Source: Alphaproteobacteria bacterium
GTDB lineage: Bacteria; Pseudomonadota; Alphaproteobacteria; Rickettsiales; VGDC01
Direction of reading: 5' to 3'
Length of the DNA: 64,000 bases
Assembly: GCA_022450665.1 (NCBI GenBank)
Contig: JAKUPQ010000002.1
Span: 15,826 to 79,825 of the forward strand
The stretch's first letter is position 1. Each line of letters starts with the position of its first letter. Position numbers and translations under genes: made by a program. Shown one piece after another: positions 12,204 to 31,614 of this stretch. Below the pieces are notes generated by a model, which was given only the letters and a program-made list of their open reading frames with translations, did no database searches and had not been told where the DNA came from.

Positions 12204-13199
12204 CTATTCAATATCTGCAAATAGCTCGGTAGACAAATAGCGCTCGGCGATAGATGCTACGATGAACACAATATTTTTACCCTGCATTTCTGGGCGCTTA
12301 GCCACTTCTAATGCTGCATGTAGAGTAGCGCCAGAGGAAATTCCAACCGGTATTCCTTCTTTTTTCGCAATCTCACGGGCGCAGATAAAGCTGTCCTCGT
12401 TGCTTACTTTCATCACTTCGTCCACCACGCCACCATCGTAAATATCCGGTACAAACCCTGCACCAATACCTTGAATTTTGTGTGGGCCAGGAGTGCCGCC
12501 CGATAATACTGGGCTGGCTTCTGGTTCTACGGCAATAATTTTTATGTTAGGGTTTTTTGCTTTGAGTGCGCTGCCAACGCCAGTAACAGTGCCACCAGTC
12601 CCCACGCCAGCTATAAACACATCGACTTTACCTTCAGTATCCCGCCAAATTTCCTCGGCGGTAGTAATGCGGTGAATTGCTGGATTGGCTTTGTTTTTGA
12701 ATTGCTGCAGCATAATTGCATTTTTGTTTTGCGCGACCATTTCTTCGGCTTTGTTGATTGCGCCTTTCATGCCATTGGCGGCAGGCGTTAAAATAAGCTC
12801 GGCACCCAAAAATTTAAGCATTTTGCGGCGCTCAATCGACATGCTTTCGGGCATAGTCAGCGCAAGACGATACCCTTTTGCGGCACATACAAACGCCAAC
12901 GCAATACCCGTGTTGCCAGAGGTGGGTTCGACCAATAGCGTGTCTTTATTGATTTTGCCTTCTGCCTCAGCGGCTTCTACCATACCAAGGGCAATACGGT
13001 CTTTAACCGAAGAAAGAGGGTTAAAAAACTCAAGTTTTGCAATAACATTGCCTACACAGTTGCGCTCGCTAGCCATACGATTAATACGCACCAACGGGGT
13101 ATCGCCAATCGTGCCTAGAATGGAATCGTAAATACGCCCACGGCCAGGATTTTCTGATAGCTTGGTGCTAAGCGATAATGTAGCGTTTGCAGCGGTCAT
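12204..13199 (-). CDS. cysK: Cysteine synthase A (O-acetylserine sulfhydrylase)
   Basis: PLP-lysine block [14 protein letters not shown], plus [11 protein letters not shown] and [10 protein letters not shown]. Confidence 0.9.
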
Positions 13200-13251
13200 A
13201 ATGCCTCCATATAAATGGTGAGAAAATAAGAAATAGGAGGATTATACGCTT

Positions 13252-13698
13252 CTATGCCATAGAATCCAGCTTTTGTGGCGCTTTGTTGCGGATATTCTTT
13301 TTTACGGCCTGATCGCATAAATCAGCAATAGTTATCACATAGAGCCGATCTTTAACGCCTGCGTGTAGCAATTCCCAAAATGGGCGTATGACTTCCTCGC
13401 CTAACTCGGTGGTGGGGGGAAGATCAGAAATCATATCGTCTTCATTAATCATTTCGCATATTTCACCAATGCTGATCTGATCGCTGGGCTTTGCTAGTTG
13501 GTAACCGCCTTTAGGGCCACGCATACCGCGCAAAATTCTGCCATGAACGAGTTTTTGCATAATTTGCTCTAAATGACGCGGTGGCAAACCTTGCTGGCGT
13601 GCGATATCACGGCTGCTAACCGGATGTTCGTGCGAATAATACGCAATATAAAGTACTGCTTCTACGGCGTAGTATAATTTTTTACATGGAGTCATCAT
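13252..13698 (-). CDS. Rrf2-family transcriptional regulator (no Cys cluster; CymR-like)
   Basis: YAVEAVLYIAYY...VSSRDIARQQGLPPRHLEQIMQKL...RGPKGGYQLAK. The start was moved to the Met pair at 13693-13698, because the longer ORF would overlap dut. Confidence 0.85.
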   Translation of the reverse strand: MMTPCKKLYYAVEAVLYIAYYSHEHPVSSRDIARQQGLPPRHLEQIMQKLVHGRILRGMRGPKGGYQLAKPSDQISIGEICEMINEDDMISDLPPTTELGEEVIRPFWELLHAGVKDRLYVITIADLCDQAVKKNIRNKAPQKLDSMA

Positions 13699-13783
13699 GA
13701 CGTTAATTCCCTGAGCTTGTATTGTTTTTAAATCTTTTTGTTTTTTTATATGCTTGTTGTTTGCAAGGGGGCTTGGGTGGTGG

Positions 13784-14230
13784 CTACATGCCGGTGGAGC
13801 CGAAGCCTCCTTCGTCACGGGAAGTTTTTTGCAGTGTGCTTGTTTCCTGCCATTGTGTTTGAACAACAGGGGCAACTACAATTTGAGCAATCCGCATTCC
13901 CCGTGTTACGGTAAATGCTTCCTGACCAAAGTTTACTAAAATGACACCAATTTCGCCGCGATAATCTGCGTCGATAGTGCCGGGGGTGTTTAACACGGTA
14001 ACACCGTGTTTTAATGCCAAACCAGAGCGCGGGCGAACTTGTGCCTCGTAGTTCTCGGGCAGCATTATTTTTAATCCGGTAGGCACAAGGGCGCGCTCAC
14101 CGAATTGTAATGTAATGGGGGTGTTGATGGCGGCGGCTAAATCGCAGCCAGCACTTTGGGGCGTTGCATAATGGGGTAAAGATAAATCTGCTGCATGATC
14201 TAACCGTGTTATGGCCGTTTTTATATTCAT
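13784..14230 (-). CDS. dut: dUTP diphosphatase
   Basis: [43 protein letters not shown] at 14228-14230; the ORF-track start at 14242 is a TTG. Confidence 0.93.
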
Positions 14231-18806: not shown

Positions 18807-20285
18807 ATGGCAGAAACACAACAAAGCGCGACTGCACTCCAACAGGATTCTGACGCTTCCGCCGATGCGGTGCGATGGGAGAATGTGCGTAATAAATTAC
18901 GGTCTACTTTTGGCGAAGCCGTGTATCGCAGTTGGTTTGACAGCCTGAGCTTTGTTGGTATTGATAATGGCGTGGCTTTAATGTCGGCGCCCACCCGGTT
19001 CGTGCGCGAATGGGTAATGTCTAATTATGCCGATGAGTTGCGCAATATCTGGCGTCAGGAGCGCGAAGCAATATTTTCGGTAGACGTTGTGATTGGCAAA
19101 CCTGCAATAATTAAGCGTAACACCGCTACTACCCAAGCGCCTGCTGCAAGCTCTCGTGCCGCGCCTGCTGATGCGGTATCTGCATCATTGGTATATGACC
19201 GCAATGATGTTCGTAATCGTGTGGATAGCATTGACGATGAAGAAGAATTTACCATTGGCTCGCCGCTGGATCCCCGTTTTACGTTTGAGAATTTTGTTGT
19301 AGGCAAGCCTAATGAATTGGCCTATGCCGCTGCCCGCCGCGTTGCCGAAGCAGATGAAGCGCCGATTGGCTGTAACCCGCTGTTTTTACACGGTGGCGTA
19401 GGTTTGGGTAAAACGCATTTGATGCATGCGTTGGCATGGCAGATTCGTCGCGAAAACCCAAATCGCCGTGTATTATATCTGTCTGCCGAGAAATTCATGT
19501 ATCAGTTTATACGTGCGCTACGTTTTAAAGATACTATGGCATTCAAAGAAAAACTGCGCTCTGTAGATGTGTTGATGATTGACGATGTGCAGTTCATCAG
19601 TGGCAAAGACAGTACGCAGGAAGAGTTTTTCCACACTTTTAATGCGCTTATCGACCAGAAAAAGCAGTTGATTATTTCAGGGGATCGTTCGCCTTCGGAT
19701 CTGGAAGGCATTGAAGAGCGCATCCGCTCGCGCTTGGGTTGGGGCTTAGTAGCTGATATTCATTCCACCACTTACGAGTTGCGCCTTGGCATCTTGCAAT
19801 CCAAAGCAGAGCGCTTGGACGGGCTGGAAATTCCGCAAAAAGTTCTGGAGTTTCTTGCGATGAAAATTACTTCGAATATTCGGGAGCTTGAAGGCGCGCT
19901 CAACCGTGTTGTGGCGCATTCCACTCTGGTAGGGCAGGCAATCACCGTAGAAACCACACAAGATGTGCTGAAAGATTTGTTGCGCGCAAATGATCGGCAT
20001 ATTACTATCGAAGACATTCAAAAGGCCGTGGCAACGCATTACAACATTAAGCTGTCCGAAATGCATTCTGCCCGCCGTTCCCGTGTTGTGGCTCGTCCGC
20101 GTCAGGTTGCTATGTATCTTGCAAAGCGCCTCACCAGTAAGAGCTTGCCAGAAATTGGCCGCAAATTTGGCGGAAAAGATCATACCACCGTGATGCACGC
20201 GGTGAAACGCATCGAGGAATTGCGCGCTTCGGATCATGACCTTTCTGCGGATATCGAATTGCTGAATCGCGCATTGGAAAACTGA
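18807..20285 (+). CDS. dnaA: Chromosomal replication initiator protein DnaA
   Basis: Walker [17 protein letters not shown], sensor and box VII regions, and a C-terminal DNA-binding signature ([15 protein letters not shown]). Confidence 0.97.
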
Positions 20286-20395
20286 ATAATTAACAATGGG
20301 CTTTTTGTTGCCCTCAAAAGAAACCCTGACTATAGTTGGATATCATGCAAAGCTCGACCGTAGAAAAAACCAATAGCAAGGAAGTAACAGGTACC

Positions 20396-21508
20396 ATGAA
20401 ATTGGCCATAGATCGTGGCACGCTGCTCAAAGCGCTAAGCCATATCCAATCCGTAGTAGAAAAACGCGGCACGATTCCTATTTTGTCTAATGTTAAGCTC
20501 ACTGCTACTGATGGTAGCCTCAGCCTGACCGCTACCGATATGGATATCGCCGTGGTAGAAACCGTGGTAGCCAATGTTTCGGATGCAGGCTCCGCTACGG
20601 TTCCGGCGCATACTTTTTATGAAATTATCCGCAAATTGCAAGATGGCTCTGAAGTAGAGCTTATTAGCACAGAAGACGGAAAAGTTGGCATTAGCGCTCA
20701 GCAATCCACGTTTTCTTTGTCCAGTCTTCCGGTAGAAGATTTTCCTGTGATGGCCGAAGGAGATTTTAGTCATAACTACACCCTTACCGCCTCGGAATGT
20801 TCAGCATTAATTGATAAAACCCGCTTTGCCATTTCTACCGAAGAAACCCGCTATTATTTGAATGGTATTTATCTGCATGTCGCAGGTGAGAGCGATCGAG
20901 TATTACGCGCCGTAGCTACCGATGGCCACCGTTTGGCGCGTATTGAAGTGGCGCTTCCCGCTGGCGCAGATGGCCAGCCTGGCGTTATTATTCCGCGCAA
21001 AACCATTGCCGAGCTGAAAAAGCTTTTGGAAGGCGAAGTAGGCGAAGTTGAGGTGTCTGTTTCTGAAAGCAAAATTCGCTTTGTGTGCGGAAATGCGGTG
21101 CTGGTATCCAAGTTGATTGATGGCACTTTCCCTGACTATGATCGTGTGATTCCTTCTGGTAATGACAAAATTATGGAAGTGGATGCCAACCAGTTTTCTA
21201 ATGCTGTAGATCGTGTGTCGGTTATTGCTTCAGATAAGTCCCGTGGCGTGAAGCTCAAAATCGAACAAGGCAAACTCACCCTCTCGGCAAACAGCCCAGA
21301 AAATGGTACCGCAAATGAGTCACTGGAAGTGACATATGGCGCAGATCCAATTGAAATAGGCTTTAACTCCCGCTATTTGCTGGAGATGATGTCGCAAATT
21401 GAAGGCGATACCGCACAATTCGTATTGGCGGATGCATCTTCGCCCGCGATCGTGCGTGACTCTGCAGATATTGGCGCATTATACGTTATTATGCCAATGC
21501 GGGTGTGA
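20396..21508 (+). CDS. dnaN: DNA polymerase III beta sliding clamp
   Basis: MKLAIDRGTLLKAL...RYYLNGI...ATDGHRLA...MPMRV. The start was moved to the Met at 20396 for a typical length of about 370 aa. Confidence 0.95.
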   Translation: MKLAIDRGTLLKALSHIQSVVEKRGTIPILSNVKLTATDGSLSLTATDMDIAVVETVVANVSDAGSATVPAHTFYEIIRKLQDGSEVELISTEDGKVGISAQQSTFSLSSLPVEDFPVMAEGDFSHNYTLTASECSALIDKTRFAISTEETRYYLNGIYLHVAGESDRVLRAVATDGHRLARIEVALPAGADGQPGVIIPRKTIAELKKLLEGEVGEVEVSVSESKIRFVCGNAVLVSKLIDGTFPDYDRVIPSGNDKIMEVDANQFSNAVDRVSVIASDKSRGVKLKIEQGKLTLSANSPENGTANESLEVTYGADPIEIGFNSRYLLEMMSQIEGDTAQFVLADASSPAIVRDSADIGALYVIMPMRV

Positions 21509-21521
21509 GTCGGCTACGTCC

Positions 21522-22769
21522 ATGGCTAAGCCTCCTCGGATGAAAACCAATGCCGAAGCGGACATGGCTTTAGCTGTGAATGGTGCGTCTGCGACGTCTG
21601 GAATCAACCTTGCCGGACGGGTAACATCACTGCAAAAACTTACCCTTACAAATTTTCGTAACTATTCTCATGTCACTTTGTCGCTATCGCCGCAGCCGGT
21701 TGTATTAACCGGTGCCAACGGAGCGGGAAAAACCAATATACTCGAGGCAGTTTCGCTTCTGACGCCGGGCAGGGGATTGCGCCGCGCCCGCGTGATTGAT
21801 ATCGATCGCGCGTCGCCACATTCGGCAAACCCGCTACCAGTGCCATGGGCGGTCGCCGCTGTGTTGCAACAGCCTGATGGCGATTTGACCGAAGTGGCAA
21901 CCGGACGTGACGCAGAAGCTGCACTAACAGGAGCAGATCGGCGCCGTGTACGTATCGAAGGCAACGATGTTCCGCAAAGCGCTTTGGCCGATATATTAAG
22001 TGTTATCTGGCTGACGCCACAATTAGACCAACTTTTTCAAGAAGGCCAATCCGCCCGCCGGAAGTTTCTGGATCGTTTGGTTTATAGTTTCGAATCCGAC
22101 CATGCACAGCACGTAGCCGCTTATGAACAGGCAATGCGCGAGCGCAATCAATTGCTGCAAGAGCGGTGCAACGATGCAAAATGGTTTGCGGCGCTTGAAA
22201 AAAAAATGGCAGAACATGCCGTTGTGGTAGCAGCCTATCGCTTACAAACCATTGAGCGCCTTAATATAGTGATAGCACAATCGCAACGCGGCTTTCCGAA
22301 GGCAACATTAGAGCTGCATGGCGTGGTAGAAGATTTGTTGCAAAGCGGATGTGTTGCTATGGAAGCAGAGAGCCGCTTTGCAGAGCAGCTGCACCAATGC
22401 CGTCAGGCAGATAGCTATGCCGGCCGTACTTCAGAAGGCATACACCGGACTGAATGGCTGGTGTTTCATCAGGAAAAGAACATGGAAGCGGGTCAATGCT
22501 CTACCGGCGAGCAAAAGGCCGTGATGCTTTCTATTGTGCTGGCGCAAGCACGGGCGCGGGCAATGTGGGGAGTGTGCGCCCCAATATTATTATTGGACGA
22601 AGTGGTGGCGCATCTTGATCTGAAACGCCGCGCCGAACTTGCCGAGGAAATACTAGATATAGGGGTTCAGGCATGGCTCACCGGAACCGATGCTGAAGGC
22701 TTTGGTGACTTGGCCGCAAAGGCGCAATTTTTCAATGTGTCAGATGCAATTGTACGGTTGCAAAACTAA
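21522..22769 (+). CDS. recF: DNA replication/repair protein RecF
   Basis: LTLTNFRNY, Walker A GANGAGKTNILEA, and the signature SGEQK-like block STGEQKAV...LLLDEV. The start was placed after the dnaN stop; 21564 is an alternative. Confidence 0.88.
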   Translation: MAKPPRMKTNAEADMALAVNGASATSGINLAGRVTSLQKLTLTNFRNYSHVTLSLSPQPVVLTGANGAGKTNILEAVSLLTPGRGLRRARVIDIDRASPHSANPLPVPWAVAAVLQQPDGDLTEVATGRDAEAALTGADRRRVRIEGNDVPQSALADILSVIWLTPQLDQLFQEGQSARRKFLDRLVYSFESDHAQHVAAYEQAMRERNQLLQERCNDAKWFAALEKKMAEHAVVVAAYRLQTIERLNIVIAQSQRGFPKATLELHGVVEDLLQSGCVAMEAESRFAEQLHQCRQADSYAGRTSEGIHRTEWLVFHQEKNMEAGQCSTGEQKAVMLSIVLAQARARAMWGVCAPILLLDEVVAHLDLKRRAELAEEILDIGVQAWLTGTDAEGFGDLAAKAQFFNVSDAIVRLQN

Positions 22770-22817
22770 GCAGAAAAGTATAGATTATACTCTGTACCGG
22801 GAACAACTATATGTTGA

Positions 22818-25304
<2,487 letters not shown>

Positions 25305-25312
25305 CCATTAGT

Positions 25313-26083
25313 CTATATGGTTTGACCTGTTTTAACCCGCTGGCGCGGTAACGTGCTTGCCGGATCTTGTGTGGCCGAGCCTGTTGGTGGCGCATTTGCC
25401 ATAGCACTCCGCAGTGCTGGTGTAACCGATGAAACATCGATTCCTTCAACGGGAGGGGTCTTTGATGGAGCGCGAGCCGATTGTTGTTCGGGTGTGGTGT
25501 AGCTGCCACGCATGCGTTGCCCTTCTGGCGAACCTTTCAAAATGTCGACAACTTTCGACATAGCCGCCTTTACTTGCGCATAAGAATTTTTTAACCCAGC
25601 AAGAGTAGATTTGTTATCGGCTATCATTCCTGGAGCCTCACCAAAATCCATTCGTACTGGTCTTCCTGTGGCTTGTGCGCAGGTTATTGCATGATTCATC
25701 GTTGCCTCTGGTGTATGGCCTTGCTGATAGCTGTTTGAAGGTAACGGCTTTTGACCAGACTCTCTCAAGCGTTCATATTCTGGCGTTGCTTGCAATACAG
25801 CATTCATGTCAGCACGTGCAGCTTGTGCTGTTTTAAATACCTCCATTAACCCGCCAATGTTGGAATGCTCATCAACAATCAGGCCTCTCACGCCATTCAC
25901 ATTCAAACTCACTGGCCGGTGGTGTTCTTGTGCCACGGTAATCGCTCGTTCCATTGTTTCATTCACGGAATTGGCGTGGGGAAATGCATCCGAAGGAATC
26001 ACTCCAGAAGATATATTTGAACTTTGCTCGGCTTTTGGCTTGCTTAAGCCCGCAAATTCAGCGATTTTACCCAAAAGAGACAT
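25313..26083 (-). CDS. Hypothetical protein with an internal ~70-aa tandem repeat and a Pro/Ser/Thr-rich tail
   Basis: 256-aa ORF with an ATG start. Repeat 1 (aa 41-110, NETMERAITVAQEHHRPV...) aligns with repeat 2 (aa 126-195, EATMNHAITCAQATGRPV...). I recognise no family. Confidence 0.5.
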   Translation of the reverse strand: MSLLGKIAEFAGLSKPKAEQSSNISSGVIPSDAFPHANSVNETMERAITVAQEHHRPVSLNVNGVRGLIVDEHSNIGGLMEVFKTAQAARADMNAVLQATPEYERLRESGQKPLPSNSYQQGHTPEATMNHAITCAQATGRPVRMDFGEAPGMIADNKSTLAGLKNSYAQVKAAMSKVVDILKGSPEGQRMRGSYTTPEQQSARAPSKTPPVEGIDVSSVTPALRSAMANAPPTGSATQDPASTLPRQRVKTGQTI

Positions 26084-26173: not shown

Positions 26174-28336
26174 ATGAATTTTCCTGCAAAAAAATTGGCC
26201 GATTGGCAAGCGCTGGCGCAAAAAGAGTTGAAAACTAAACCGCTTGAGGCTTTGTATTGGGATACTCCAGAGGGTATACGCATCAAGCCGCTTTATACTG
26301 CGGAGGATTTGCAGAACTTAGATGTAAGCAGCCAACTGCCTGGCTTTGCGCCCTATACTCGTGGGGTGCGTGGCACCATGTATTCTGGACGTGCATGGAC
26401 AATTCGTCAATATGCAGGGTTTTCAACGGCTGAAGAGTCAAACGCATTTTACAAGCGAAATTTAGCGGCTGGACAAAAAGGGCTTTCTGTAGCGTTCGAT
26501 TTAGCGACCCATCGCGGATATGATTCCGACCATCCCCGCGTGATGGGAGATGTTGGAAAAGCAGGTGTTGCCATAGATTCATTAGAAGATATGAAATTGC
26601 TCTTTGCTGATATTCCGCTTAGTGACATCAGCGTATCCATGACAATGAATGGCGCGGTGCTACCCATTTTGGCATTTTATATTGTGGCGGCAGAAGAGCA
26701 GGGCATCAGCCCCGATCAGCTGGCTGGAACTATACAAAATGATATTCTAAAAGAATTTATGGTGCGAAATACTTATATTTTTGCGCCCGAACCCAGTATG
26801 CGCATTGTGGCGGATATTATTGAATATACCTCCAAACATATGCCGCGCTTTAATTCGATTTCTATCTCTGGCTACCACATGCACGAAGCAGGTGCTACCG
26901 CAGTGGAAGAGTTGGCATTTACCATAGCCGATGGGGAAGAATATGTAAAAGCCGCCATGGAAAAAGGGCTGGATATTGATAGCTTCGCCCCGCGCCTGTC
27001 GTTCTTTTTTGGTATTGGCATGCATTTTTTCATGGAGGTGGCCAAGTTACGCGCGGCGCGAGTATTGTGGGCACGTATTATGCAAAATTTAGGAGCGCAA
27101 AATTCTAAATCATTGATGTTGCGCACTCATTGTCAAACCTCTGGCGTGTCGCTGCAAGCGCAAGACCCGTATAACAACGTGATACGTACAACGGTTGAAG
27201 CGATGGCTGCCGTACTAGGGGGTACGCAATCACTGCATACCAACGCTCTGGATGAAGCGATCGCGCTGCCAACAGATTTCTCGGCACGTATTGCACGTAA
27301 TACTCAGTTGATTCTAGAACATGAAACCGGCATTACACCCGTAGTAGACCCGCTTGGAGGTAGCTATTATATCGAATCGCTAACTCATAGTTTGGTGGAG
27401 CATGCATGGGCTGAAATTGAAAATATTCGTGCCATGGGTGGTATGACACACGCTATCGAGAAAGGTGTACCTAAGCGTAAAATTGAAGCCTCTGCCGCCC
27501 GTAAACAAGCGCGTATAGATGGCGGAGAAGAAGTGATTGTGGGGGTAAACCGCTTCCAACCTTCTACAATAGAAGCCTTAGATACCTTGGAAGTGGATAA
27601 CAGTAAAGTGCGGGACGGTCAGATTGCCCGTTTGAAAAACATACGCGAATCACGCGACAACGATAAATGTGCGCAAGCACTGGAGGCGCTGACGAAAGCC
27701 GCAGAAACCGGCGGCAAGAACTTGCTGCAAGCGCATATAGAAGCGGCGCGGGAGCGGGCAACATTGGGAGAAATGACCGCAGCACTAGAAAAAATATTCC
27801 CCCGTTATGATGCGCCTGTAGAAGTGGCTACGGGCGTATATAAAGATAGCTATGGCGACGTAAGCGCTCTTGAGGCAATACAGCAACGCAATACGGAAAT
27901 TGCGGCTGTTATGGGTGGTGCAGCGCGCATATACATCGCCAAAATGGGGCAGGATGGTCATGATCGTGGTGCAAAAATCATTGCTTCTGCCTATAGTGAT
28001 TTAGGATTTGAAGTTGTGGCCGGACATTTGTTTCAAACCCCACAAGAAGCTGCGCAAGTGGCCGTGGATAAAAAAGCACATATATTAGGGGTTTCCACCC
28101 AAGCTGGCGCGCATAAAACATTAGTGCCAGAGGTCATTGCGGCGCTAAAATCTCTTAATGCAGAAAATATGATAGTGGTGTGCGGTGGCGTGATTCCATC
28201 GCAGGATTATCAAGCGTTATACGATGCAGGTGTGGCCGCAATCTTTCCGCCCGGCACACCCATTCCAAAATCCGCCAATGAATTATTGGATATTTTAGAG
28301 CTGCGTCACCGCAAGGGAAACTATTTTGTAAGCTAA
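26174..28336 (+). CDS. scpA: Methylmalonyl-CoA mutase, single-chain (adenosylcobalamin-dependent)
   Basis: 720 aa. N-terminal substrate barrel ([20 protein letters not shown]-like HCQTSG) and a C-terminal B12-binding domain with the DxHxxG motif ([10 protein letters not shown]). Confidence 0.95.
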
Positions 28337-28770
28337 CGCGCTATCTGCGATGGTTCTTTCTCAGACACAACCTGCTGCCACCTTGTAGAAGGTGCATTAT
28401 CATCTAATGAAATATCGGCGGGCTGTGAAAGATGCACTGGCTTATCCATGGCAAAACGTCGCGCCAAACGCAGGTCTTCTAGCCGTACTTTTTCGGTTTC
28501 ACGCTTGTTAGATAAATAAGTGAATCCTACACCAGCAGCCATTAAACCGCCCATAAGCGCAGGGCTTTTCGCCGACTTAAAAGGCTTTTCATCGTTTTCT
28601 ACTGCTTGCACTAAACGATGCGTCAAATTGCCCAAAACACCAATAAATGTAGCACCAGCTGCCGCAAAATAGAGCGAAGAAAAAAAAGAATGTTTGCGGT
28701 GTTCACGAATAAATTGCTGTTCATAAGCATTGTCGTGATTTTGTGTAAGCAAGTCGGGGGCGTTGTTCAT
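28333..28770 (-). CDS. Small two-TM membrane protein of unknown function, located downstream of a cobalamin riboswitch
   Basis: ATG at 28768-28770 is preceded by GGAG 8 nt upstream. Two Gly/Ala-rich hydrophobic helices ([21 protein letters not shown] and [16 protein letters not shown]). The ORF track extends to a GTG at 28803. Confidence 0.6.
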
Positions 28771-28864
28771 AATGGCTCCATGCGTTAACAGTGCACATGC
28801 CACGACCGGACGAATTCCGGTGGATCCAACAAGCAGAGATTTTCCTCGATCTCTTAAATGCGTG

Positions 28865-29035
28865 TGACATGAACGGCAGGTCTACTGGCTTGCAGATTAA
28901 CGCTTACGACGCCTTCCCGGGGTTTCCAGTGGCCTGTGTCGGTTGCTGCTGCATACAGTTGCGAGGACAGCCGCAGAATAGGCTTTAAAACCGAACTGCG
29001 TTCCCTTTTCATTCTGGCTTTTTATGGCCAAAAAC
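28865..29035 (-). promoter_or_regulatory. Cobalamin (B12) riboswitch
   Basis: The minus strand reads ...GCCAGAATGAAAAGGGAACGCAGTTCGG...CTGCGGCTGTCCTCGCAACTGTA...GCCACTGGAAACCCCGGGAAGGC...AAGCCAGTAGACCTGCCGTTC. All conserved cores are present, including the B12 box. Confidence 0.85.
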
Positions 29036-29187
29036 CGTCGGCACATGCATAATTGCTTCCCTGCCAAATGTCAAGTGGTGCAAAAACCTGCAATATTGCA
29101 ATAAACCCCTTGACGTGAGCTTGTTTGAAGGGTAAAAAACACGCCTCATATTACTAATTCATACGCTTGAAGAAAAAGGTGCTTATC

Positions 29188-29490
29188 ATGGCTAATCGTT
29201 GCGAACTGACCGGTGTTGGCGTGTTAACAGGAAATAACGTTTCTCACGCAAATAATAAAAGCCGTCGCCGCTTTTTGCCGAATGTGCAAAATGTGTCTTT
29301 GCTTAGCGAGGCTTTAGGAAACCCAGTTTCCTTGAAAGTAACTGCTGCTACACTGCGTACTGTTGAGCACAACGGAGGTCTTGATAATTATTTACTGACC
29401 ACCTCCAACAACAAGCTTACGGTTAAGGCACAAAGCATTAAGCGCCGCATTAAGCGCTCGCTGGCTGCAAAAGAAGAAAAAGCTGCGTAA
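29188..29490 (+). CDS. rpmB: 50S ribosomal protein L28
   Basis: [34 protein letters not shown]. The start was moved to the Met at 29188, which is preceded by AAGGTG. Confidence 0.93.
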
Positions 29491-31537: not shown

Positions 31538-31614
31538 TGGTGCACCCGGAGCGATTCGAACGCCCGACCCCCAGATTCGTAGTCTGGTGCTCTATCCAGC
31601 TGAGCTACGGGTGC
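31538..31614 (-). tRNA. tRNA-Arg (anticodon ACG), CCA encoded
   Basis: The reverse complement GCACCCGTAGCTCAGCTGGATAGAGCACCAGACTACGAATCTGGGGGTCGGGCGTTCGAATCGCTCCGGGTGCACCA folds as a cloverleaf. The acceptor stem is GCACCCG/CGGGTGC and the anticodon loop is CTACGAA. Confidence 0.93.

Follow-up and report, generated by a model that had tools for sequence, protein, structure and literature searches.

A cobalamin riboswitch upstream of a small gene of an undescribed family, convergent with the methylmalonyl-CoA mutase gene in an uncultured alphaproteobacterial lineage

The stretch of DNA analyzed here, called the window, comprises 64,000 nucleotides (nt) of contig JAKUPQ010000002.1 (assembly GCA_022450665.1) from an Alphaproteobacteria bacterium assigned to Rickettsiales VGDC01, and all positions are counted within it. 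Its minus strand carries a cobalamin riboswitch aptamer (28858–29051), followed by a small gene encoding a protein of 145 residues (28333–28770, minus strand) that converges with the gene for methylmalonyl-CoA mutase (mcm, 26174–28336, plus strand). The mcm product is a single-chain enzyme of 720 residues (NF006944, 1191 bits), consisting of an MM_CoA_mutase domain and a C-terminal B12-binding domain. The stop codons of the two convergent genes overlap and the gene ends share 4 nt. An earlier note on this DNA had placed the small gene tail to tail with the adenosylcobalamin-dependent mutase, which is indeed what we find, and had named the mutase as the only neighbor linked to B12 biology; neither another B12 gene nor a paralog of the small gene was found within the window.

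The riboswitch was identified by an Infernal search of the whole window against Rfam 15, a check proposed in the same note, in which the family RF00174 (gathering score 31.5 bits) matches the minus strand at 28858–29051 with 100.8 bits and an E-value of 5e-24, spans the full model (positions 1–189 of 189) and is the sole riboswitch in the window. The cobalamin motifs quoted earlier were each located on the minus strand as stated: the conserved cores GAAAAGGGAA at 29010–29001 and GCGGCTGTCCTCGCAACTGTA at 28973–28953, the pair GCCACTGG...GGGAAGGC together with the core sequence GCTGTCCTCGCAACTGTA, and the B12 box AAGCCAGTAGACCTGCC at 28891–28875. An alignment of eight orthologous aptamers (those of the window and of the related loci L001, L002, L005, L006, L009, L017 and L098) reveals compensatory two-sided changes that keep 14 of the 43 consensus pairs, which indicates that the aptamer RNA is under structural selection. 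Judged by its sequence, the element is a true, full-length cobalamin riboswitch that is predicted to bind corrinoids; as an RNA it displays every sequence-level feature asked of RF00174, and the riboswitch itself is ordinary and canonical. A probable promoter lies at 29046–29074 of the minus strand, where a –35 box TTGACA (29074–29069) is separated by a 17-nt spacer from a –10 box TATGCA (29051–29046). This assignment is a consensus match; CTTGACA and TATnnn recur at identical spacing in L001, L002, L005, L006 and L098, and the –35 position of L017 is occupied by ATTGACA. The conserved boxes just upstream suggest that transcription starts at the 5′ strand of helix P1, which would put the beginning of the riboswitch transcript near 29039.

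Downstream of the aptamer, a P13 hairpin with the stem AGAGAU/AUCUCU is predicted at 28835–28854. Its loop L13, CGAGGA (28848–28843), is complementary to the invariant loop L5 of the aptamer, UCCUCG (28967–28962), so as to form a predicted kissing loop. The L13 motif is kept in all loci as CGAGGA, CGGGGA, CGAGGU, CGAGGG or CGAGGC, and at the sequence level at least 5 bp of L5–L13 complementarity are retained in every locus, L098 included (CCCUCG/CGAGGC). In corrinoid riboswitches the L5–L13 kissing loop couples corrinoid binding to the expression platform, and rules for P13 have been described (PMC10327014). A second hairpin, ACCGGA-AUUCG-UCCGGU, is predicted at 28805–28821 in the six closest loci, among which some changes occur on both sides of the stem. 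Its inner part, CCGGA-AUUCG-UCCGG at 28820–28806 of the minus strand, had been pointed out before along with the GGAG and the ATG at 28770, and all three are present; only the distance of 8 nt given for the GGAG (28779–28776) is approximate, its last G lying 5 nt and its first G 9 nt before the ATG.

Two further pairings, which share a strand, complete the platform. Immediately 3′ of P1, the sequence CAUGUCAC (28871–28864, the 5′ strand of a putative anti-sequestor helix) can form 8 bp with GUGGCAUG (28803–28796). This is the best duplex in six of the eight loci, namely the six closest, where it always lies 22–27 nt before the start codon. It includes one fully compensatory change from A-U to G-C in L005, and it is equaled by 2–7 of 300 shuffles in five of these six loci and by 26 of 300 in L005. 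The same GUGGCAUG segment also contains the 5′ strand of a local hairpin (28772–28803), in which GUGGC (28803–28799) pairs with GCCAU (28776–28772) and thereby encloses the Shine-Dalgarno (SD) sequence GGAG. Across loci GUGGC pairs with GCCAC or GCCAU at the SD sequence, with energies from –7.8 to –17 kcal/mol in seven loci; this sequestor covers the SD sequence in the window, L002, L006, L009 and L098, whereas in L001 it is the start codon that is covered and in L005 the hairpin borders on the SD sequence. L098 retains the scheme with other sequences (GUGUCAC/GUGAUGC, read by eye, and a 10-bp SD hairpin). Between the aptamer and the ATG, the window has no terminator-like hairpin with a U-tract behind it. 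This, together with a hairpin that buries the SD sequence or the start codon, makes the platform a translational sequestor/anti-sequestor aimed at the small open reading frame (ORF); by its predicted pairings, the leader is built around the SD sequence and start codon of the small gene. Four other arrangements were considered and rejected. A transcription-terminator platform would need a hairpin with a U-tract, which is missing from the aptamer-to-ATG interval of the window, and in the aligned leaders of the other loci no U-tract comes after the hairpins. An extension of P1 by the 5′ leader that competes for CAUGUCAC, seen in the minimum free energy fold of the window, is unconserved and probably upstream of the transcription start. 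Pairing of the 3′ strand of P13 with GGCAU as an alternative anti-sequestor fits four loci, and not the window or L009. Finally, riboswitch control of rpmB is incompatible with the position of that gene, which diverges from the riboswitch promoter and lies on its upstream side.

Pairwise comparison of the small-gene orthologs, read where synonymous divergence (dS) is not saturated, gives ratios of nonsynonymous to synonymous substitution rates (dN/dS) of 0.1–0.55. The small ORF is thus a selected protein-coding gene, as the description of a ~145-residue product starting at 28770 had implied, and these ratios together with the existence of a wider family led us to discard an artefact or a leader peptide. 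The encoded protein, which evolves fast, is identical to a "hypothetical protein" (P0001) of an alphaproteobacterial metagenome-assembled genome (MAG) at NCBI. It consists of an N-terminal helix, expected to be cytosolic, a first hydrophobic segment (residues ~28–47), a short loop (54–69), a second hydrophobic segment (~69–87), a basic helix (89–114) and a disordered tail with a conserved tryptophan, W131, and a C-terminal arginine. The family is rare: of 1.84 billion cluster representatives, searched exhaustively with phmmer, only 46 are related at E ≤ 1e-3, among them proteins of 250–560 residues with 2–4 tandem copies of the module; the family members checked by cluster look-up are unnamed metagenomic singletons. 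Several features of the module are conserved: it opens with a helix of acidic and aromatic character, followed by a hydrophobic segment rich in Gly and Ala (AGAxFxGVL); after a short loop come a second segment, rich in Gly (MGGxMAxGxxFTY), then a basic helix (LEDxRLAxx) and finally a disordered tail whose tryptophan is nearly invariant. In L015, which lacks a riboswitch, a single-module gene (161–655) overlaps the start of a gene for a three-module paralog of 416 residues (639–1889); such tandem, overlapping copies suggest that the family grows by tandem duplication and module fusion.

Neither Pfam-A nor NCBIfam contains a match to the 145-residue protein at E ≤ 0.1, in line with the earlier statement that it belongs to no usual B12-regulated class, and ten multi-module relatives have no match in Pfam. 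The family has no counterpart in PADLOC; in PHROGs, P0001, P0011 and P0019 are without a match and P0030 and P0055 stay at chance level (E ≥ 0.014). A sequence-profile search of the PDB gave a chance-level partial match only. A phage-type holin or lysis protein was rejected for want of a phage-family profile match, and a known B12 or cobalt transporter (BtuB, BtuCDF, BtuM, ECF-CbrT, CbiMNQO, CbtAB or NiCoT) likewise for want of a profile match. The AlphaFold (AF2) model built from an alignment of 35 sequences has a predicted local distance difference test score (pLDDT) of 82.6 and folds as a hairpin of two 46-residue helices (14–59 and 68–114, as listed) with a short helix at 130–138; a Foldseek search of this model against the PDB returned nothing below E = 1. 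The two Gly/Ala-rich segments described previously are therefore present, but their designation as transmembrane helices has to be softened to likely insertion, since their hydrophobicity is moderate (best 19-residue Kyte-Doolittle means of 1.57 and 1.09). Lysine and arginine residues cluster just before the first segment and in the helix after the second, and the loop is neutral; the likely topology is an inner-membrane hairpin with both termini inside. The three-module paralog is modeled as three hairpins with a predicted template modeling score (pTM) of 0.68, an arrangement that hints at side-by-side packing of the modules. The best Foldseek matches of this model, MsbA, TmrAB and CydDC, are not significant (E 0.06–0.5, template modeling (TM) score ≤ 0.24, root-mean-square deviation 15–20 Å), and a cobalamin importer of the ABC-exporter fold with six long transmembrane helices (Rv1819c, BacA, SbmA) was rejected because these ABC-exporter matches are insignificant.

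The same cassette, in which rpmB diverges from a riboswitch followed by the small gene and a convergent mcm, is found for all retrieved homologs adjacent to mcm. Beyond the window, the riboswitch-linked set comprises 11 metagenomic loci (L001–L007, L009, L010, L017 and L098) that encode eight other distinct proteins, 35–65% identical to that of the window. RF00174 occurs upstream of the small gene in all 11, that is, in every other locus with upstream DNA, the contig of L008 having none and being left out of the count. Full-length orthologous riboswitches score 102–124 bits and the 5′-truncated copy of L010 87.9 bits. Of 12 related loci, nine have a 4-nt overlap between the 3′ ends of the small gene and mcm, and L098 has one of 11 nt; the ends are 0 nt apart in L017 and 6 nt apart in L006. 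In L007 (4753–5270) the small gene was called at 89 residues, its frame being open only from 4893, and the riboswitch equals that of L002 in length and bit score (123.6 bits); the short ORF reflects either a frameshift or stop in the population or an assembly error.

The genomic context of distant members that are not adjacent to mcm was examined for P0055, P0056 and P0037. The first two, with ~27–30% identity, sit between mutS and maeB, the third precedes a three-module paralog, and none has a riboswitch. The question raised earlier, whether homologs sit behind B12 riboswitches elsewhere, is thus answered affirmatively for the 11 mcm-adjacent loci and negatively for these three members; within the small-protein family the presence of the riboswitch tracks adjacency to mcm, and the riboswitch-free members make it probable, on comparative grounds, that the basic activity of the family is not specific to B12. 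Conversely, RF00174 is absent within 3 kb of 19 mcm 3′ regions from other, mostly alphaproteobacterial genomes, and a narrower screen of 80 mcm loci with nhmmer and the family Hidden Markov Model (HMM) was negative. For alignment A5 and P0030 no relatives were found in genome or metagenome contigs. The carrier lineage is uncultured: relatives of the window GyrB with 74–86% identity occur only on unnamed contigs, its identity to named taxa (Rickettsiales MAGs, Telmatospirillum, Thalassospira) is at most 69%, and no close relative was found among the GTDB species representatives.

On balance we lean toward a reading in which the riboswitch has a promoter of its own and, as an OFF switch, governs the start of translation of the small gene, and in which the product acts at the membrane when B12 is scarce. 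The sign by itself is very likely OFF, since the translational cobalamin riboswitches studied, such as those of btuB and env8, all repress and constitute a strong prior, with one natural activating corrinoid riboswitch known (PMC10327014). At low corrinoid, GUGGCAUG would be released from the sequestor by pairing with CAUGUCAC just after P1, the SD sequence would be freed and the protein would be made. Upon binding of a corrinoid, the L5–L13 kissing loop would fix the platform, the sequestor hairpin would form and translation would stop, as in btuB; the untranslated mRNA would then be shortened by Rho or degraded. Translational riboswitches commonly trigger Rho termination, as shown for several in Escherichia coli (PMC5499598). 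Over its first 80–120 nt the small ORF is richer in C than in G (window 28770–28650, minus strand, with 22 C and 11 G among the first 78 nt); the orthologs have 16–27 C against 15–21 G in the same region, and the bias is absent in L017 and almost absent in L098. Weak as this bias is, the start of the ORF might allow Rho to load whenever translation is blocked.

The product would sit in the inner membrane and keep both of its termini in the cytoplasm, so that its basic coiled stalk and conserved tryptophan tail face the cytosol. We conjecture from the logic of the regulon and from this cytosol-facing conserved tail, and from these alone, that it has a role in B12 scarcity at the membrane, where it would aid acquisition of the cofactor or its hand-over to cytosolic partners. 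The geometry of the locus adds a second consequence. The minus strand of the window carries no terminator-like site from 28333 to 27450 and terminator candidates after the small gene in the other loci are weak and non-conserved; as far as sequence inspection goes, the strand of the small gene has behind this gene no intrinsic terminator that is convincing or conserved. Given 3′ ends that overlap or abut, B12-gated expression would therefore collide with transcription of mcm: at low B12, RNA polymerase and ribosomes would run head-on into the 3′ end of mcm, and at high B12 the small protein and the convergent transcription would vanish together. A function selected at the level of the protein is favored, because the platform is built around the SD sequence and start codon of the ORF and because the protein is conserved, an antisense effect being either a serious rival or an addition to it.

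That rival, which we hold to be unlikely, would make regulation the main output: the riboswitch transcript, antisense to the 3′ end of mcm, would lower the mutase at low B12, binding of B12 would shut the transcript off and let mcm be expressed, an AspocR-like logic applied to an enzyme gene, and the membrane function of the protein would be unrelated to B12. It draws on the overlapping or abutting stop codons in 12 of 12 loci across 35–65% protein identity, on the lack of a convincing or conserved terminator after the small gene, on the coincidence of riboswitch and mcm adjacency within the family, and on two precedents, translational repression that reaches transcription via Rho (PMC5499598) and, as summarized in PMC11575231, a B12-riboswitch antisense RNA that limits B12-dependent catabolism to the presence of B12. 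However, the platform surrounds the SD sequence and start codon of the small gene and not a terminator, purifying selection on the ORF and the wider family show that the protein counts in its own right, compact genomes often contain tail-to-tail overlaps, and the synteny of gyrB and rpmB is equally conserved, so that the geometry may lack specific selection. Both outputs may also be combined in a reciprocal control, which appears decidedly unlikely, where low B12 would bring about a protein of corrinoid capture or hand-over and silence mcm by collision, and high B12 would relieve both; if true, it would represent a new family of B12 economy and the first case in Alphaproteobacteria of an AspocR-like antisense circuit whose direct target is an enzyme gene. 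The opposite sign, an ON switch, is improbable. Here the corrinoid would stabilize the kissing loop and P13, favor the CAUGUCAC/GUGGCAUG helix and free the SD sequence, the protein being made along with the holo-mutase, for instance as its partner or anchor. The anti-sequestor closes a junction that contains P13 and is thus compatible with it rather than mutually exclusive, and by a rough estimate the sequestor (–7.8 to –17 kcal/mol) is no less stable than the long-range helix (~–11.5 kcal/mol) after subtraction of the cost of closing the junction, so that OFF could be the default state. An activating corrinoid riboswitch does exist, but it is the only natural one reported, the translational ones studied being repressors (PMC10327014); moreover, it uses P13 itself as an anti-terminator, an arrangement different from the present one, and an ON switch would let the head-on clash with mcm peak exactly when mcm is needed.

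Quite improbable in our view is a factor that copes with B12 scarcity outside cobalamin handling, such as an oligomeric glycine-zipper pore or a membrane scaffold that eases the effects of an inactive mutase, for example acid stress derived from propionyl-CoA or methylmalonyl-CoA. The Gly/Ala-rich hydrophobic segments, the side-by-side association suggested by proteins of 2–4 tandem modules (pTM 0.68) and the occurrence of the family elsewhere without B12 control agree with it, as does the common repression of B12-independent substitutes such as metE by B12 riboswitches (PMC11260477). On the other hand, no homology or structural match to a channel or exporter was found (best Foldseek match of the three-module protein at E 0.06, TM score ≤ 0.24), nor is there a clue to a substrate or a supporting gene neighborhood. 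As for the favored reading of an OFF switch on a B12-scarcity protein, several observations weigh against it. The anti-sequestor encloses P13 and does not compete with it, so that the kissing loop could equally favor the open, ON state, and the pairings of the platform are harder to discern in L017 and L098, the two loci that have diverged most. The protein shows no sign of corrinoid or cobalt binding or transport in Pfam or NCBIfam, and its Kyte-Doolittle hydrophobicity is marginal for membrane helices. The riboswitch-linked copies all stem from a single lineage whose synteny is conserved (dnaN-recF-gyrB-mcm ... rpmB), for which reason the association counts as one evolutionary event and not as several independent ones, and the linkage of riboswitch and gene could persist partly by inertia. 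Any effect on mcm is deduced purely from the geometry. Confinement to an uncultured lineage and a protein without a functional clue further weaken the case.

Concerning the surroundings of the cassette, dnaA, dnaN, recF and gyrB lie just upstream at 18807–25304, and their adjacency places the cassette beside the gene cluster of the chromosomal replication origin. L098 shares the order dnaN-recF-gyrB-mcm with the window. Between gyrB and mcm the window carries an ORF of 256 residues (25313–26083, minus strand) without a Pfam or NCBIfam match, which seems to hold two internal repeats of ~35 residues, ETMERAITVAQEHHRPVSLNVNGVRGLIVDEHS and EATMNHAITCAQATGRPVRMDFGEAPGMIADNKS; this ORF is missing from L098, where gyrB and mcm are 99 nt apart with no gene called. 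On the other side, rpmB (ribosomal protein L28; 29188–29490, plus strand), divergent from the riboswitch promoter, is the conserved upstream neighbor. The ORF list has it begin at TTG 29167 with 107 residues; because the homologs of the related loci have 98–100 residues, its true start is probably the ATG at 29188 (MANRCELTG...). A tRNA gene at 31541–31614 of the minus strand (RF00005, 65.7 bits) has the anticodon loop CUACGAA and was read as tRNA-Arg(ACG); tRNA matches are full-length in L001, L002 and L007 and 5′-truncated at contig ends in L005 and L006. A PALP-domain enzyme beside an Rrf2 regulator occurs both in the window (12204–13875) and in the riboswitch-free L011 (1–1032), a pairing that hints at shared ancestry of larger genome segments among these alphaproteobacterial lineages.

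The interest of the locus resides in a B12 sensor that is tied to a family without a database description, by a tie that survives deep divergence. In addition, the 3′-to-3′ abutment offers a testable case of whether a translational riboswitch can regulate its neighbor through convergent transcription; if it can, this would explain how some bacteria, with no regulatory protein, adjust the mutase to the supply of its cofactor. Should both ideas fail, the locus adds one further hypothetical gene to the B12 regulon. Compared with the btuB type of E. coli, the present riboswitch is alike in its full-length aptamer with a B12 box, its L5 and L13 loops and P13 hairpin, and its hairpin that sequesters the ribosome-binding site in the absence of an intrinsic terminator. 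It differs in its cargo, a TonB-dependent receptor there and a 145-residue protein of an unannotated family here, in a sequestor located ~45 nt downstream of P13 with an 8-bp long-range helix that encloses P13 and the second hairpin, and in a regulated gene whose end lies within the 3′ end of a gene that encodes a B12-dependent enzyme. New vitamin transporters and handling proteins have repeatedly first come to light through their linkage to riboswitches. CbtA/CbtB and BtuM, small membrane proteins linked to B12 riboswitches, are predicted to take up cobalt or corrinoids, a role first proposed from this linkage alone. The protein described here resembles them as a small, probable membrane protein whose B12 role is suggested by the riboswitch, whereas it is unrelated to them in sequence (no Pfam or NCBIfam match), has only two hydrophobic segments, lacks a His- or Cys-rich metal motif and would expose a periplasmic loop of ~15 residues.

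The antisense geometry finds its closest likeness in AspocR of Listeria monocytogenes, an antisense RNA under the control of a B12 riboswitch (Mellin et al. 2013, via the account given in PMC11575231). AspocR begins with a B12 riboswitch and lies antisense to a gene that serves B12-dependent metabolism, and the transcript of the small gene may do likewise; by this logic the gene opposite would be fully expressed only with B12. AspocR, as portrayed there, is non-coding, has a terminator for its platform and overlaps a regulator gene, whereas the present transcript encodes a conserved protein behind an SD sequestor and would meet the 3′ end of an enzyme gene; the likeness rests on geometry, with gene ends overlapping by 4 nt. 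A non-coding antisense RNA of the AspocR type was therefore rejected here, since the transcript encodes a selected protein and the platform is an SD sequestor without a terminator. The ppe2 gene of Mycobacterium tuberculosis (PMC11260477), whose function is uncertain, is likewise controlled by a B12 riboswitch although it does not belong to the classical B12 regulon; its protein family is unrelated and the mycobacterial case uses coupling through an upstream ORF. Among the papers searched, none describes a cobalamin riboswitch convergent with mcm or controlling such a protein. What is new at this locus is a cargo from an undescribed family together with a fixed geometry against the gene of a B12-dependent enzyme.

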